The notes beneath the pieces are model-generated. The model had not been told where the DNA came from and did no database searches. It saw only the letters and a program-made list of their open reading frames with translations. DNA of 64,000 bases from Candidatus Melainabacteria bacterium 17Bon1m (GTDB lineage Bacteria > Cyanobacteriota > Vampirovibrionia > Obscuribacterales > Obscuribacteraceae): positions 609,008 to 673,007 of the forward strand of contig JAVLKG010000003.1 of assembly GCA_032128875.1 (NCBI GenBank), written 5' to 3'. The translations under genes were made by a program, and so were the position numbers. This document shows positions 8,746-14,034 of this stretch, one piece after another. Within the stretch, counting starts at the first letter, position 1, and each line of letters starts with the position of its first letter.

Positions 8746-9000
8746 TCATAGTGCTAATGGGCACTCTGTCAGTTCTTTCCACTTCCGGCTGAGCAAATCA
8801 GTCAAAGCTTCCAGAGTATTGGTGATTCCGGAATCATGTTCTTCGTTGCCGTTGATGCGGATTCTTGGTGATGACTGGCTGCTGGTTTCGACCAGCTCGA
8901 CGGGAATCGGAAGGCGCTCTTCAGCAATCACCTTCTCCAAAGTATCCCGGACACTGGAATACGAGTTGCAACCGGGTCTGTAAATGAGCTCTACCCGCAT
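8746..9000 (-). CDS. Small thioredoxin-fold-like protein
   Basis: Strong RBS GAGGAGG before ATG 9000; MRVELIYRPGCNSY...SPRIRING resembles small Trx-like proteins. Confidence 0.7.
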   Translation of the reverse strand: MRVELIYRPGCNSYSSVRDTLEKVIAEERLPIPVELVETSSQSSPRIRINGNEEHDSGITNTLEALTDLLSRKWKELTECPLAL

Positions 9001-9479
9001 ATGATGAAACCTCCTCTCTGCAAAATGAGTGAAAAGGGGATTCCGTGGGCTTCCAGAGAAGCTCACCAAAAATAAAGGAAACCTTAACGCCTTACTTGAG
9101 AGAAGTATAAGCGCAAATTATCAGTTGCCAATATTAATATCCGGGCGAAATGGTTAATCTGCTCTAAGAGAGCTGAAAAGCAAAGCAGGAAGCTTTAGAC
9201 AAAGCTTCCCGGGGGAAGAAGGGGCGCAGGATTGTTTTCTCTCTGTGTCTTATATTCCCTGGTCTTGGCAACTCAAACCTACTTGCTCGATAAAATTTGC
9301 AGTCGGCTGCAGAAACCGCGATGCCTGGAAGAAACTTGCTCAGGGTGCAAAGAAAGCAATTCGGCGTTTGGTGCCGGTTGTTGAAGCAAGACGAATCGAG
9401 TTTTGACCATTTGTTTGGGAAAGTTCGATTACTTAACTCGTTCAAAACCGGCACCAGCAGCTTTATGGCATCACCTGTT

Positions 9480-10790
9480 TTAAGGTGTCATTCGGTTGAT
9501 GTCGCGCGGAAAAAGTGCGGCCAATTTTACGGACGGCAAGCCGAGCAATTGTTTTGCAATGCGCTCCAAGCCGATGGCAAAACCACCGTGTGGAGGCATT
9601 CCATATTGGAAGCACTGCAAGTAGTCCTTGAACGCTTCTGGATCCAACCCTCTTGCCTGCATTGCGCAGACCAGCTCTTCATGTCTGTGTATGCGCTGTC
9701 CGCCGGTGGTGATTTCCAACCCGCGGAAGAGCAAGTCGAAGCTGCGGCTAGACATTTCCGTTTCGGTCGGCAATGGCATGGCATAAAATGGCCTCACGCT
9801 GAGCGGATATCCGGTGATGAAGACCAGATCCGAATTTTCCGTTTTGTGGAAGTGTTCGCAAATGATCTTCTCGCCTTCTGGGTCGAGGTCGGTTTTTTCC
9901 TGAGTGCCTTTTTTCTGATAGCTGTTGATGATCTCGACAGCTTCGGCCAGCGTAACACGAGGAATGGTGCCGATTTGCGGTATCTTGGCGCCCCACAATG
10001 CAAGTTCGTCGGCACAAGATTGAGAGACCTTCTCGAACATATGTTTGACCAACTTGTTGAGTAAGTCCATCAGGTCGTGCTCGTTTTCGATGAACCCCAT
10101 CTCGACGTCCATGCTGATATATTCGTTGAGATGACGGGTTGTATCGTGCTCTTCGGCGCGATAGACCGGAGCAATCTCAAAAACTCGCTCCAGTGCGCCG
10201 ACCATAATCTGCTTGTAGAACTGCGGGCTTTGCGCGAGAAAAGCTTCTCTGCCGAAGTAGTTGAGCTTGAAGAGCTGTGCGCCACCTTCGGTTCCAGTTG
10301 CAACAATCTTGGGAGAGTGAATCTCGGTGAATTGCCTGTCGCGCAAAAATTCGCGGAATGCTTCACAGAAAACAGCTTCTATCTTGAAGATTGAGCGTAC
10401 TTTCGGACTGCGCAATGTGAGCGGACGGTAGTCGAGCATGGTCGAAAGCGACAGTCCATCGACTTTGCTTTGTTTTCCGATTTCTACTGGAAGCGATTGT
10501 GCAGGCGTTGAGAGCAGCGTCAATTTCTTCAGTTGAATTTCGAAACCTTGTCCCTGAGGGCGCGCAACGACCACACCCTCTGCGATGACAGGCGTCTCTG
10601 GTGCTGCTTGTCCCACGACAGCAAGCACCTCTTGCTCATCAGCAACCAACTGCACACTGCCGTCCATGTCTCTGATTACGACAAAGGCGAGGTTGCCCAT
10701 GTCTCTCAGAGACTGGATGTGACCGTGTATACGCACGGTGGCTCCCGTGTGTTTCGACAGCTGGCTAGAGCTGATTTCTTCTGTCATCAT
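9480..10790 (-). CDS. aspS: Aspartate--tRNA(Asp/Asn) ligase, archaeal-type, probably non-discriminating
   Basis: 436 aa, too short to carry the bacterial GAD insert; RDMG, TEGGA, LAQSPQFYKQ, YRAEEHDTTRHLNEY, GMPPHGGFAIGLER, FPRD; RBS AAGGAG. Confidence 0.93.
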   Translation of the reverse strand: MMTEEISSSQLSKHTGATVRIHGHIQSLRDMGNLAFVVIRDMDGSVQLVADEQEVLAVVGQAAPETPVIAEGVVVARPQGQGFEIQLKKLTLLSTPAQSLPVEIGKQSKVDGLSLSTMLDYRPLTLRSPKVRSIFKIEAVFCEAFREFLRDRQFTEIHSPKIVATGTEGGAQLFKLNYFGREAFLAQSPQFYKQIMVGALERVFEIAPVYRAEEHDTTRHLNEYISMDVEMGFIENEHDLMDLLNKLVKHMFEKVSQSCADELALWGAKIPQIGTIPRVTLAEAVEIINSYQKKGTQEKTDLDPEGEKIICEHFHKTENSDLVFITGYPLSVRPFYAMPLPTETEMSSRSFDLLFRGLEITTGGQRIHRHEELVCAMQARGLDPEAFKDYLQCFQYGMPPHGGFAIGLERIAKQLLGLPSVKLAALFPRDINRMTP

Positions 10791-10829
10791 GACCTTACTC
10801 CTTGTGGTTTTTGGTTAGGTTTTCGTCGT

Positions 10830-10864
10830 AAAAGAAAAACCGCAAGAACCTTGATTCTTGCGGT
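10830..10864 (-). terminator. Attenuator terminator in the aspS leader
   Basis: ACCGCAAGAA-TCAAGG-TTCTTGCGGT then TTTTCTTTT, ending ~40 nt before the aspS start. Confidence 0.88.
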
Positions 10865-10925
10865 CGTAAAGCTTTTTGGTCGTTGCCTGTTTTTACTAGG
10901 TGTGCCGCCTTACTAACCGCAAGAA
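10855..10925 (-). promoter_or_regulatory. Antiterminator of the aspS attenuator
   Basis: TTCTTGCGGTTAGTAAGGC (10925-10907) pairs with GCTTTACGACCGCAAGAA (10872-10855): 18 bp with two G-U pairs and one bulge, sequestering the terminator 5' arm. Confidence 0.8.
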
Positions 10926-11102
10926 GCGATTATTATCGTTGTCGTTATTATTATTGTTGTCGACAAAGGCGGGCGATGCGGCGCCGACCATACCCTTGAG
11001 AGGCAGGCGGGAAGGCGCTTTTGCGGTGATTGAATGTACCGGCATCTGATTACCTGAATTACTGTTTTGTATCCACATATAGTGGATTGTGAGTGCGCGC
11101 AT
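10896..11102 (-). CDS. Asp/Asn-rich leader peptide of aspS (68 aa)
   Basis: AGAGGG SD ~9 nt before ATG 11102; DNNNNNDNDNN run at 10961-10929; TAG at 10898-10896. Confidence 0.75.
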   Translation of the reverse strand: MRALTIHYMWIQNSNSGNQMPVHSITAKAPSRLPLKGMVGAASPAFVDNNNNNDNDNNRFLRLVRRHT

Positions 11103-11123
11103 TTGCAACGCCCTCTTTGCTGA

Positions 11124-11152
11124 ATGCTACCGCCGCCATTAGCAGGCGTCAA
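11124..11152 (-). promoter_or_regulatory. Sigma70-type promoter of the aspS leader
   Basis: TTGACG-N17-TAGCAT. Confidence 0.7.
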
Positions 11153-11239
11153 TAGTTTGTGAAATCGGAAACCTGAACTGTTATTAGTCTGTACCAGTCA
11201 GCCAGTTTTGATCTGGTCCGGTATGCAGCGCTAAGGTCA

Positions 11240-12655
11240 TTAGTCGGTTTCAGTTTTTGGTGCTGCTGGTTGGGCTTCGCCTTCACGAGCCAGTTTGCTC
11301 TGATCATCAAGCGAACGCTTCAAATCAAGAGAAATCCAGTCGAAGATAGTGCGATTGCCTTCTGTCGGATTCAACTGATCTTTCAGATGTTTTGTGCCGC
11401 GTAGGGGCTTGTAGCCATCTATGAAAGTGAGGTGATCGATGTTGCGGAAGACACGCGCAGTGCGCACATCAGTCAACGATTTGATACTGGCGACGTCCGA
11501 TTCTTTAGCCAGCGGCATCGAACCGATTACCGAGTTCGGCAGGCACAGAGCGCTCTGCAACGGTGTTATGCCGTCGTTGAGACCGTAGACATATTTCGTT
11601 TTCGCCTTTTCTGTAGCAGATGGATTGCAGACAACCGTCGTTATTTCGCGGTTGAGCATTCGCAATACAGGGTGCTCCAAAGCAAAGTGAGAAGGCACTT
11701 TCAGAGTGAAGAAAGTGTACGGAGCCATGACTCCGCGCTCGATAAACCGCTCTGCTTTCGGCATCAAATAAGGGTTGAGCAAGTATCCGCCGTAAGCAAC
11801 AATTTTCTTCTTGTTGATCGGGCGAGCGTTAAGAGCGAGAAGTTCTCTGTTCTCAGCTTCTGCCACTGTCAGCTTGCCGCTTGGTCCGAAGGGCAGTCTG
11901 GACTTGAACATGCCCACTTCCGGAACGCTCGTGTCAGCGTTGTCCCAGCGCAAATCTGTCATTAACACTGAATTGCGCTTGAAGTAAACGCGATAGGCAA
12001 TGCTATGGTCGATGCGAGTCCAAGGGAAGCAGAGGTTTTTGTAGACACCGTACTGCAGCCAGTCTGTCGAAAATAGCGGCGAGCCGTGGAAAGGAACGCC
12101 GAAGGCCATAAAGAGTTTGATCTTGTCTTCAGTGTCCTTATCGGAGAATGCTTCGTAAGCGACATTACCGCCCATGCTTAAAGCCATCATCGTGATGGGG
12201 CGATTGTTTGTCAGTGTATAAAGCTTGGCAATGACGTTGCGCAATTCCGGCACGGTTTTATCCAACTTGTCTGATGTTGAATAGCGGGCCATGTATATTT
12301 TGAATTGCTTGTCGAGCTGCTGGTCTTCCTTTATGTGCTTGATAACTTTAGTCCAGCGGAAATTGCGGTGAGTCTCACCGTGCAAGCCATGAACCATAAG
12401 CAGAGGTTGGCGATCGCCGAGAGGGGAACTATCATATTCGTAGAGAGTCGCCACCTCAGGCTTCACTCGAAGCTGCTTTAATGTAGGCATAGGAGGCAAT
12501 GCTGACTGCACTACCGGTTGAACCGCTTCAAACTTTTCAGCCGAGCTCGTCAACATTTTTTTCGCCGACTCAGCCCCAAATGCAGACGATGAGAACGTCA
12601 CCGCGCATAACATGGTGGATGCCAAGATGGTTTGAAATCTCGCACTTTGGTACAT
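11240..12655 (-). CDS. Secreted alpha/beta hydrolase (lipase/esterase-like)
   Basis: Signal peptide, MVHGLHG, ALSMGG nucleophile elbow, PFHGSP, NDGIT, IDHL. Confidence 0.75.
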   Translation of the reverse strand: MYQSARFQTILASTMLCAVTFSSSAFGAESAKKMLTSSAEKFEAVQPVVQSALPPMPTLKQLRVKPEVATLYEYDSSPLGDRQPLLMVHGLHGETHRNFRWTKVIKHIKEDQQLDKQFKIYMARYSTSDKLDKTVPELRNVIAKLYTLTNNRPITMMALSMGGNVAYEAFSDKDTEDKIKLFMAFGVPFHGSPLFSTDWLQYGVYKNLCFPWTRIDHSIAYRVYFKRNSVLMTDLRWDNADTSVPEVGMFKSRLPFGPSGKLTVAEAENRELLALNARPINKKKIVAYGGYLLNPYLMPKAERFIERGVMAPYTFFTLKVPSHFALEHPVLRMLNREITTVVCNPSATEKAKTKYVYGLNDGITPLQSALCLPNSVIGSMPLAKESDVASIKSLTDVRTARVFRNIDHLTFIDGYKPLRGTKHLKDQLNPTEGNRTIFDWISLDLKRSLDDQSKLAREGEAQPAAPKTETD

Positions 12656-12768
12656 AGCGTAGTTACCGGTTAGTGGAAGCCCCTTACTAATGGCTCAAAA
12701 AGCCATAAATTAGAACCACATTAACAAATTTAAGACAGAAATAGAACCCGTTGGAAAGCGAGATCACT

Positions 12769-14034
12769 ATGGCTAAGTCCAATTTCCGCATTGCCTTCTT
12801 CTACTCCGATACCGGAGGTGGGCACAGGAGTGCGTTCAACGCCATTGAAGCGGCGGTGAAAGAACTGATTGCACGCGATTCCCGCGGATACACATTTGAA
12901 TTGAGTTCCGACACTATTGTTGAAAAGAGCCATCCGATAAACAAAAAGTTTGTCGAACTTTACAACTACCTGCTAGGGCACAAGCAGGAATGGATGAAGT
13001 ACTACTACTGGTTTATCCAGACTTTCAAGCCGAACGATTCAGAACTGGGTTACCTGATTGTAAAACGCTATCTGAGCAAGCTTTTCGCGGAATCAGAGCC
13101 GGACGTGATTGTTTCGGTTCATCCAATGACCAATCAATATGTTGCTCGTGTTCTTAAGGATCTGGGAATGGACGAGCGCGTCAAGCTTTTGACGGTCGTA
13201 ACCGACCCCAACGGCAACTTCTGGCGTGGATGGGCATGCCCGGATTCTGCTTTGACAGTTGTTCCTAACTCTCTGTCCAAACAGCAATTAGTTGAATGGG
13301 GCGTGCCGGCAGAAAAGATTCGGATCGTCGGAATGCCAGTCAATCCGCAATTCTTGAAGCCACCAAAAACCACCCGTAAAGAGTTTATGGAGTCACTCGG
13401 TCTGGATGGCGAAAAGACCACAATTTTCCTTAACGCAGGTTGGGCCGGCGGTGGCAACATGCTGGACATGTATCACCAGTTGAGCAAGACCAAGAAGGAC
13501 ATTCAAATAATCTTTCTGTGCGGGCGCAACGAAGAGCTCTACAACAAGGTTAAGAATGCCGCATCACAGAGTCCTGTACCGACCGCGGTCATGCCTTACT
13601 ACGACAGTTTGGCTGACATCATGTCTCATGTGGATTTGATGGTCACCAAGGCTGGCGGACTTACTACTTTCGAAGCTATTGCTAAGAAATTGCCTCTGGT
13701 TTTTGACACAATCACTGCTCCTATGCCTCAAGAAATGGGTACCGTTCAACTTCTCGTGAAAGAGAATTTGGCATACAAAGTCGAGAAGCCAGAAGATATT
13801 CTTCAAATCGTTGAGAATTTCAAGCCTATTGAAGACAGACAAAATTACAAGCTGCCGACTCGCTACAGCCTCGATCGCACCGAAGCAGTCTACGATATTG
13901 CTAGAATGATCCTTGGTTTCTGTGATCCGAGCTTTTCTCCTGTTTTCGATCCTGCCTCAGGCAGCGTTAGAGAGCCGGTACGTGCCGAATACGGCAAACA
14001 TGCAATGCTCGATATGCAGGGACAGACTACATAG
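12769..14034 (+). CDS. MGDG synthase/UgtP-family diacylglycerol glycosyltransferase (GT28)
   Basis: SDTGGGHRSA, PDVIVSVHP, TVVTD, GMPV.P.F, CGRN, MVTKAGG. Confidence 0.85.
   Translation: MAKSNFRIAFFYSDTGGGHRSAFNAIEAAVKELIARDSRGYTFELSSDTIVEKSHPINKKFVELYNYLLGHKQEWMKYYYWFIQTFKPNDSELGYLIVKRYLSKLFAESEPDVIVSVHPMTNQYVARVLKDLGMDERVKLLTVVTDPNGNFWRGWACPDSALTVVPNSLSKQQLVEWGVPAEKIRIVGMPVNPQFLKPPKTTRKEFMESLGLDGEKTTIFLNAGWAGGGNMLDMYHQLSKTKKDIQIIFLCGRNEELYNKVKNAASQSPVPTAVMPYYDSLADIMSHVDLMVTKAGGLTTFEAIAKKLPLVFDTITAPMPQEMGTVQLLVKENLAYKVEKPEDILQIVENFKPIEDRQNYKLPTRYSLDRTEAVYDIARMILGFCDPSFSPVFDPASGSVREPVRAEYGKHAMLDMQGQTT

Follow-up and report, generated by a model that had tools for sequence, protein, structure and literature searches.

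In the trpL, hisL, thrL (Thr/Ile) and ilv leaders, a stalled ribosome picks between two mutually exclusive RNA helices, and the pheST attenuator of Escherichia coli combines the pheM leader peptide, rich in Phe codons, with an antiterminator and a terminator (Rfam Phe_leader). To our knowledge, tRNA synthetase genes are rare targets of leader-peptide attenuation, pheST being the one example we can name. Here we analyze a locus within a 64,000-nucleotide (nt) stretch of DNA, hereafter the window, from Candidatus Melainabacteria bacterium 17Bon1m (assembly GCA_032128875.1, contig JAVLKG010000003.1, positions 609,008 to 673,007), in which a short open reading frame (ORF) with a run of Asn and Asp codons precedes aspS2, a second aspartyl-tRNA synthetase (AspRS) gene of archaeal type. 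We consider it likely that this locus is a ribosome-mediated (leader-peptide) transcription attenuator of the archaeal-type aspS of this Obscuribacteraceae genome.

In its overall plan the aspS2 leader resembles pheST, where a codon-rich leader, an antiterminator and a terminator likewise control an aminoacyl-tRNA synthetase gene rather than a biosynthetic operon. The codons of pheST are Phe codons, whereas those of the aspS2 leader are Asn and Asp codons, representing two amino acids at once; furthermore, neither a protector hairpin nor an Rfam match was found here, and the host belongs to the Obscuribacteraceae (Cyanobacteriota). The thr and ilv leaders provide a precedent for more than one amino acid in a single leader. 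In contrast to these and to trpL and hisL, the target here is a tRNA synthetase that would feed tRNA-dependent Asn synthesis, and the leader is long, with the 5' arm of its antiterminator inside the ORF, upstream of the stop codon. In contrast to trp, the untranslated leader is predicted to default to read-through and not to termination. A preliminary description of the locus, made from the letters of the window, had assigned it the trp/his/pheST layout; this assignment stands for the leader, the antiterminator and the terminator, but not for a trp-like 1:2 protector hairpin nor for the default state. Leader-peptide attenuation as such is known, and what would be new is the Asn/Asp specificity, AspRS2 as the target and the lack of a protector hairpin. 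A search of open-access papers and bioRxiv, supplements aside, returned no description of an Asn/Asp leader attenuator.

A T-box of Clostridium acetobutylicum concerned with amidation was reportedly the subject of work by Saad et al. (in JBC in 2012 and in PNAS in 2013), which is related to asparagine by title. According to PMC5622331, a T-box controls tRNA-dependent amidation in this organism. The clostridial T-box answers the same regulatory problem in the same gene family, an extra AspRS tied to tRNA charging, and the two systems differ in their sensor, which is direct RNA-tRNA contact in the T-box and would be a translating ribosome in the aspS2 leader.

All elements of the locus lie on the minus strand. 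A promoter-like site, TTGACG-N17-TAGCAT (11152-11124), matches 9/12 consensus positions, with the -35-like hexamer at 11152-11147 and the -10-like hexamer at 11129-11124. Taken alone it is not significant, with six such sites in 4 kb versus 3.7 +/- 2.1 in shuffled sequences; the same TTGACG hexamer with a 17-nt spacer, read by eye, occurs in 12 same-genus loci, and the two hexamers are kept together in the upstream regions of relatives. A Shine-Dalgarno (SD)-like AGGTA (11055-11051) stands 5 nt ahead of an ATG at 11045, from which the leader ORF runs for 49 codons to a TAG stop codon (10898-10896). Within it, 11 consecutive Asp/Asn codons, three Asp and eight Asn, occupy positions 10961-10929 (GAC AAC AAT AAT AAT AAC GAC AAC GAT AAT AAT), and 30 nt separate the run from the stop. 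The antiterminator 5' arm (10925-10907) begins 3 nt past the last Asn codon; its partner is the 3' arm at 10872-10855, and the helix of the two has 18 pairs and a single bulged A. This 3' arm overlaps the 5' arm of an intrinsic terminator, a hairpin of 12 pairs with a loop of 4 (10865-10838; -16.5 kcal/mol) followed by TTTCTTTTAC, with the T tract directly after the hairpin at 10837-10828. The aspS2 ribosome-binding site, AAGGAG (10803-10798), precedes the ATG at 10790 of the regulated gene (10790-9480; 436 amino acids). The promoter, the 11 Asp/Asn codons, the 18-bp helix, a terminator with U-tract sharing the antiterminator's partner, and the aspS2 ribosome-binding site and start had all been put forward in the preliminary description, and each was recovered at these places.

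We compared the locus with 24 other genomes of the same GTDB family and 16 genomes from seven other families of the class. Archaeal-type aspS was found in 21/24 of the former and in 0/16 of the latter. One of the 22 resulting family loci, L037, begins inside the gene and has no upstream DNA, leaving 21 for comparison (the window and 20 relatives), and all 21 present the full layout, with AspRS identities ranging from 54 to 99%. In every one of them a D/N-rich frame (6-10 of 10 residues Asp or Asn) is followed by a stop codon 24-36 nt past the run and by a terminator 21-31 nt past the stop (-11.4 to -23.8 kcal/mol), and the segment after the run pairs with 6-11 nt of the terminator 5' arm. Five further Obscuribacterales-like records (L039-L042 and L044) have the same layout; L038 is the same contig as L024 and was omitted, and L043 has no upstream DNA.

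The 26 leaders were aligned with MAFFT without reference to any structure. In this alignment 77.6% of antiterminator cells are paired, compared to 33-44% in slid controls; 12 of the 18 pairs change on both sides, which 6/500 shuffles reach, and the covariation score (0.211 versus 0.123) is equaled by 0/500 shuffles. For the terminator, 92.4% of cells are paired, 5 of the 12 pairs change on both sides, and the score of 0.264 versus 0.116 is again equaled by 0/500 shuffles. The invariant core of the two helices is GCGG / ACCGC / GCGG, corresponding to the antiterminator arm, the terminator 5' arm and the terminator 3' arm, and its flanks change in step, as in GTAAGG with CTTTAC in the window versus ATAAGG with CTTTAT in L028; L031 has an altogether different inner helix. 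An alignment of relatives had been proposed at the outset as a check on the D/N run and the stems, and it bears out both, with the run present in 21/21 family loci and the stems covarying. The attenuator is real and conserved and, judging from these comparisons, very probably functional.

The comparative data also bear on a simpler account, in which the hairpin would be the terminator of the upstream 471-amino-acid gene (11240-12655, same strand) and the ORF would be accidental. That gene does need a terminator, and the promoter-like site carries no significance by itself. The hairpin, however, lies 375 nt past the stop codon of the upstream gene and downstream of the conserved promoter; throughout the family, D/N run, stop position and antiterminator are maintained and covary; and no second D/N frame of this kind was found in the genome. 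The comparative data contradict this account, which is scarcely credible.

The preliminary description had opened the leader at an ATG at 11102, giving 68 codons. Its reading frame and its stop at 10896 stand, but the conserved start is the ATG at 11045, which gives 49 codons. The ATG at 11102 is in the same frame, and such an extension is possible in the window alone; the frame listing gives the leader frame as 10896-11108, from a TTG start, and the closest relative (L017, 99% identical) has no start codon at the place of ATG 11102. In 12 of 13 same-genus loci (all but L028) the ATG equivalent to 11045 is conserved together with an SD, which reads AGGTAA, AGGAAA or AGGTG. A stop codon falls directly before the conserved ATG in L021, L024, L026 and L027, and one codon before it in L025. 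Across the family, an in-frame start codon upstream of the D/N run is present in 21/21 loci, and relatives have leaders of 21 to about 50 codons, compared to 49 here. Towards the N-terminus the peptide varies freely in both length and sequence among relatives, while the codon run and the RNA arms are kept. From the triplet periodicity, the in-frame starts and this contrast between a variable N-terminus and a kept run and arms, we infer that the leader is translated.

The same features weigh on the idea of an untranslated RNA switch, in which the A-rich AAY/GAY run would serve, along with the hairpins, as a direct binding site for a protein, a metabolite or a tRNA, T-box-like and without a ribosome. 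This idea draws on the finding of a T-box before homologous archaeal-type aspS genes in 24/80 loci of other phyla, mostly from Clostridia and Paenibacillus, a result that also serves as the positive control for the T-box model. Against it stand the triplet periodicity, the use of synonymous codons, the in-frame start with its SD and the conserved stop position. Furthermore, no Rfam family, T-box (RF00230) and curated leader families such as the Trp, His, Thr, Leu and Phe leaders included, matched the 1-kb region 10500-11500 at E values up to 10, and a T-box was found in none of the seven Obscuribacterales-like records L038-L044. We therefore regard a ribosome-free switch as very improbable.

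The lack of an Rfam match can be set beside a second leader in this genome. At G000:C12:178588-178750, a 25-codon ORF (L118 89-166) ends in H G H H H H H H H S and is followed by a terminator near L118 215-250, by hisG (TIGR00070, 150.6 bits) and then by a hisC-like gene. This textbook His leader before hisG indicates that the lineage uses leader-peptide attenuation. Since Rfam returned only sub-threshold matches there too (Trp_leader, 23 bits), the missing match at the aspS2 leader is unsurprising.

Both Asn and Asp codons are present in all 26 aligned leaders, at 3-9 Asn and 2-5 Asp codons each, in agreement with the mixed codons described at the outset. The D/N-dominated run spans 6-11 codons, and AAT, AAC, GAT and GAC make up 233 of the 242 run codons, with both synonyms of each amino acid in use. 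Asn codons outnumber Asp codons in 24/26 leaders (172 versus 61 in total); in the leader of L028 Asp prevails, 5 to 4. We read this composition as making Asn-tRNA(Asn) the main signal and Asp-tRNA(Asp) a second one.

The predominance of Asn is also what would be expected if the leader reported Asn-tRNA(Asn) alone, as the end product of the AspRS2-GatCAB route, with the two or three Asp codons either tolerated or serving some other end, for instance the interruption of a slippery AAT/AAC repeat. The genome encodes a separate bacterial-type AspRS for tRNA-Asp, and the C. acetobutylicum amidation T-box relates, as far as the title of the paper tells, to asparagine, both of which speak for an Asn-only sensor. 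Nevertheless, at least two Asp codons are found in the run of each of the 26 leaders, even in genera whose AspRS is only 54-61% identical, L028 favors Asp over Asn, and the D-rich upstream ORFs found before the same gene family in other phyla contain mostly Asp. We consider an Asn-only sensor unlikely, but a serious rival.

Runs of this kind are scarce in the genome. A six-frame scan of the 7.55-Mb genome for at least seven consecutive D/N residues returned 12 matches in total. Two of them, runs of 13 Asn, arise when (CAA)n poly-Gln tracts within genes are read out of frame; of the other nine, eight lie in open frames of 173 to 1087 codons, and one, 7 residues long, lies in a frame of 94 codons. 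The (CAA)13 tracts, at G000:C6:372442-372480 and G000:C20:30836-30874, encode poly-Gln inside two predicted proteins. We also screened for short frames that are enriched in a residue and have a terminator after them; of the 31 sites listed from 88 raw hits, the aspS2 leader is the sole D/N one. In this genome, no D/N leader was found before aspS1, asnS, either asnB-like gene or gatB.

This specificity matters for another alternative, in which control would depend on translation and not on particular amino acids: through the leader, transcription of aspS2 would follow the general capacity for translation, or the D/N peptide would itself arrest the ribosome, however well the tRNAs are charged. 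By its design the leader would read through without a ribosome, so that anything slowing ribosomes early would induce the gene. Yet the only conserved coding feature is a run of the two amino acids that a non-discriminating AspRS would serve, the run precedes exactly that gene in 26/26 loci, and no other D/N frame of the short-frame-plus-terminator type turned up in the genome. Such unspecific coupling is, in our judgment, improbable.

We then modeled the attenuator by folding the RNA present just before the terminator 3' arm emerges, with the ribosome represented as a block that extends 15 nt upstream and 12 nt downstream of the first A-site base, a footprint size that we take as an assumption. 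In the window, the terminator 5' arm is sequestered, with 10-11 of its 12 nt paired, when the A site is on D/N codons 1-9, and only 0-5 nt are paired, leaving the arm free, when the A site is anywhere from the last D/N codon to the eighth codon beyond it. This behavior is shared by 26/26 leaders, in which the 5' arm is free while the ribosome occupies the last one to three D/N codons or the eight or so codons beyond. In the model without a ribosome, the antiterminator forms. This pattern fits a scheme in which stalling results in read-through and smooth translation in termination. Furthermore, the 311-nt leader folds at -88.5 kcal/mol compared to -72.0 +/- 5.1 kcal/mol for shuffled sequences (z -3.24; 0/100 shuffles as good), and its minimum free energy (MFE) structure includes the antiterminator. 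Folding of both conformers, another check suggested in the preliminary description, placed them 2.8 kcal/mol apart (-26.4 versus -29.2). A switch driven by thermodynamics only was considered and dropped, the terminator conformer winning almost throughout in the window and in most other leaders.

On this basis we propose the following mechanism. Transcription would begin at the conserved promoter, and a ribosome would translate the 49-codon leader. A shortage of Asn-tRNA(Asn), or in second place of Asp-tRNA(Asp), would stall the ribosome early in the run of 11 D/N codons, at about the ninth at the latest, leaving the segment 10925-10907 free to pair with 10872-10855; this pairing would sequester the terminator 5' arm, and the polymerase would read into aspS2. 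When both charged tRNAs are plentiful, the ribosome would proceed over the antiterminator 5' arm towards the stop codon, the terminator 5' arm would then be free to form the 10865-10838 hairpin, and transcription would end at the T tract. A leader left untranslated is predicted to be read through. The additional AspRS2 would supply more Asp-tRNA(Asn) to GatCAB, and possibly also Asp-tRNA(Asp).

The identity of the regulated enzyme is in keeping with this scheme. AspRS2 matches the NCBIfam model NF003483 (aspartate--tRNA(Asn) ligase) at 552.8 bits, above the cut-off of 353, and TIGR00458 at 420 bits, above the cut-off of 368.4, in line with its original designation as archaeal-type, and among solved structures its best match is 1n9w/3kfu, the non-discriminating archaeal-type AspRS2 of Thermus thermophilus (E value 2e-119). 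The enzyme is of archaeal type and may have non-discriminating activity. The genome, which is 93% complete, also encodes a bacterial-type AspRS and a LysRS. The presence of asnS and gatCAB had been raised as a point to be checked, and an AsnRS (624 bits) and GatB were indeed found. Two AsnB-family proteins are encoded as well, the gene of one abutting the open frame ahead of it, and AsnA was not found in the genome. There is one tRNA-Asn(GTT), with a U1-A72 pair, and there are three tRNA-Asp. GatB and the U1-A72 tRNA-Asn are compatible with charging of tRNA-Asn by AspRS2, without being diagnostic of it.

Several observations weigh against the attenuator as proposed, beginning with its energetics. 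In equilibrium folding of the window, the terminator conformer is the MFE structure at 21/22 ribosome positions and also without a ribosome. When the full RNA is folded with the ribosome mask, the pattern of antiterminator first and terminator later appears only in L031, L033, L039 and L040, and not in the window or most other leaders. Since the two conformers differ by only 2.8 kcal/mol and the terminator is favored at equilibrium, the choice between helices would have to be kinetic. The preliminary description had reasoned that an early stall permits transcription of aspS2 and that a ribosome reaching the stop codon disrupts the antiterminator. Mask folding agrees with the first part, with the terminator 5' arm sequestered upon an early stall in 26/26 leaders. 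The second part holds less well: a ribosome at the stop codon masks only the inner 7 antiterminator pairs, and the outer 11 can re-form behind it, so that termination would depend on timing or sterics. In addition, no protector (1:2) hairpin was found in the MFE structure of the whole leader or among upstream complements of the antiterminator arm, and an untranslated leader should therefore read through. A ACCGCAAAAG string in the leader was considered as a protector strand and rejected, as it is not conserved, by eye, among relatives.

The enzyme and its genomic setting add to these points. We take the residues that set tRNA specificity to be W26 and K85 in the discriminating Thermococcus kodakarensis enzyme and H and P in the non-discriminating T. 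thermophilus enzyme; AspRS2 has Gln at both aligned positions and conforms to neither pattern. Moreover, in a genome with an AsnRS, a bacterial-type AspRS and two AsnB-family genes, AspRS2 is not obviously the only route to Asn-tRNA, and the need for an Asn-regulated AspRS2 is not obvious. Lastly, four public RNA-Seq-labelled libraries from one sample contain 94% of the sampled words, but they yield contigs of 14-27 kb over positions 9000-13000, the longest record in a run being 181 kb; with contigs of this size, the libraries look like DNA and cannot show 3' ends. The contigs of all four runs end at 10845-10857, inside the terminator hairpin, which probably reflects an assembly break at the inverted repeat and not a transcript end, and is evidence neither way.

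The distribution of the genes offers some context for AspRS2. The closest public contigs are titled as Candidatus Obscuribacteraceae, Obscuribacterales or Melainabacteria. One genome of the same family (G016, 96% complete) has neither archaeal-type aspS nor AsnRS above cut-off, and the small-genome families of the class likewise have neither; these organisms presumably rely on bacterial-type AspRS and GatCAB. Thus, the AsnRS and AspRS2 of this genus look like later additions.

Beyond the Obscuribacterales, 5/72 homologous loci present at least 6 D/N residues in an 8-residue window upstream of aspS, compared to 0/72 on the antisense strand and 0/68 downstream. In L046, L049 and L055 (Paenibacillus, Bacillota), a full T-box with its terminator is followed, some 100-115 nt ahead of the aspS match, by a strongly D/N-rich upstream ORF (uORF) that has a good SD; the uORF stop overlaps the aspS ATG in L049, and the uORFs of L046 and L055 overlap the aspS start in another frame. 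This arrangement looks like tandem control by T-box and uORF. Asp-rich uORFs of about 15-19 codons precede archaeal-type aspS in L065 and L103 (Chloroflexota), L115, and L063 (Bradymonadaceae), and those of L065, L103 and L115 follow a T-box-like 3' end and terminator that Rfam did not call at its gathering score. In L085 (Deinococcaceae), a 14-codon leader containing N N S D N D lies 167 nt before aspS and is followed by a GC-rich hairpin and a T tract. The occurrence of D/N-rich uORFs before archaeal-type aspS in Bacillota, Chloroflexota, Deinococcaceae and Bradymonadaceae points to either repeated invention or ancient inheritance. We regard it as an evenly balanced question whether Asn/Asp-codon leader peptides make up a widespread, unpublished attenuator class for the tRNA-dependent asparagine pathway, in which a ribosome would take the part that the Asn T-box has in clostridia. 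The leader of the Obscuribacteraceae, with the GCGG / ACCGC / GCGG core, may be one family-wide instance of such a class. Across phyla, the same control problem appears to be handled by different sensors, a T-box or a leader peptide, and sometimes by both in tandem.

If the attenuator works as proposed, then with Asn and Asp codons always mixed in the run, the leader would respond to two inputs, namely both products of a non-discriminating AspRS. From the composition of the leader, the cell appears to switch on AspRS2 when Asn-tRNA, and also Asp-tRNA, is short, and induction upon Asn-tRNA shortage would be indirect evidence that the enzyme serves tRNA-Asn. The leader would thereby amount to a testable statement, made at the level of sequence, on why bacteria keep a second, archaeal-type AspRS. 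It would also place ribosome-mediated attenuation at work in Melainabacteria-type Cyanobacteriota, the non-photosynthetic relatives of cyanobacteria, and could serve as a compact marker of this regulon in metagenome-assembled genomes.

Minor features were noted around the locus and elsewhere. Downstream of aspS2, beyond a terminator-like site at 9211-9186, the window contains a 107-amino-acid ORF (8746-9069, minus strand) that weakly matches, at 23.6 bits against a cut-off of 70, a DF family (seleno)protein domain. Between gatB and the gene preceding it, three copies of a palindromic repeat of about 25 nt, resembling repetitive extragenic palindromic (REP) elements, are found at G000:C7:57560-57690, and a palindromic REP-like element akin to these lies upstream of the leader promoter in L022.

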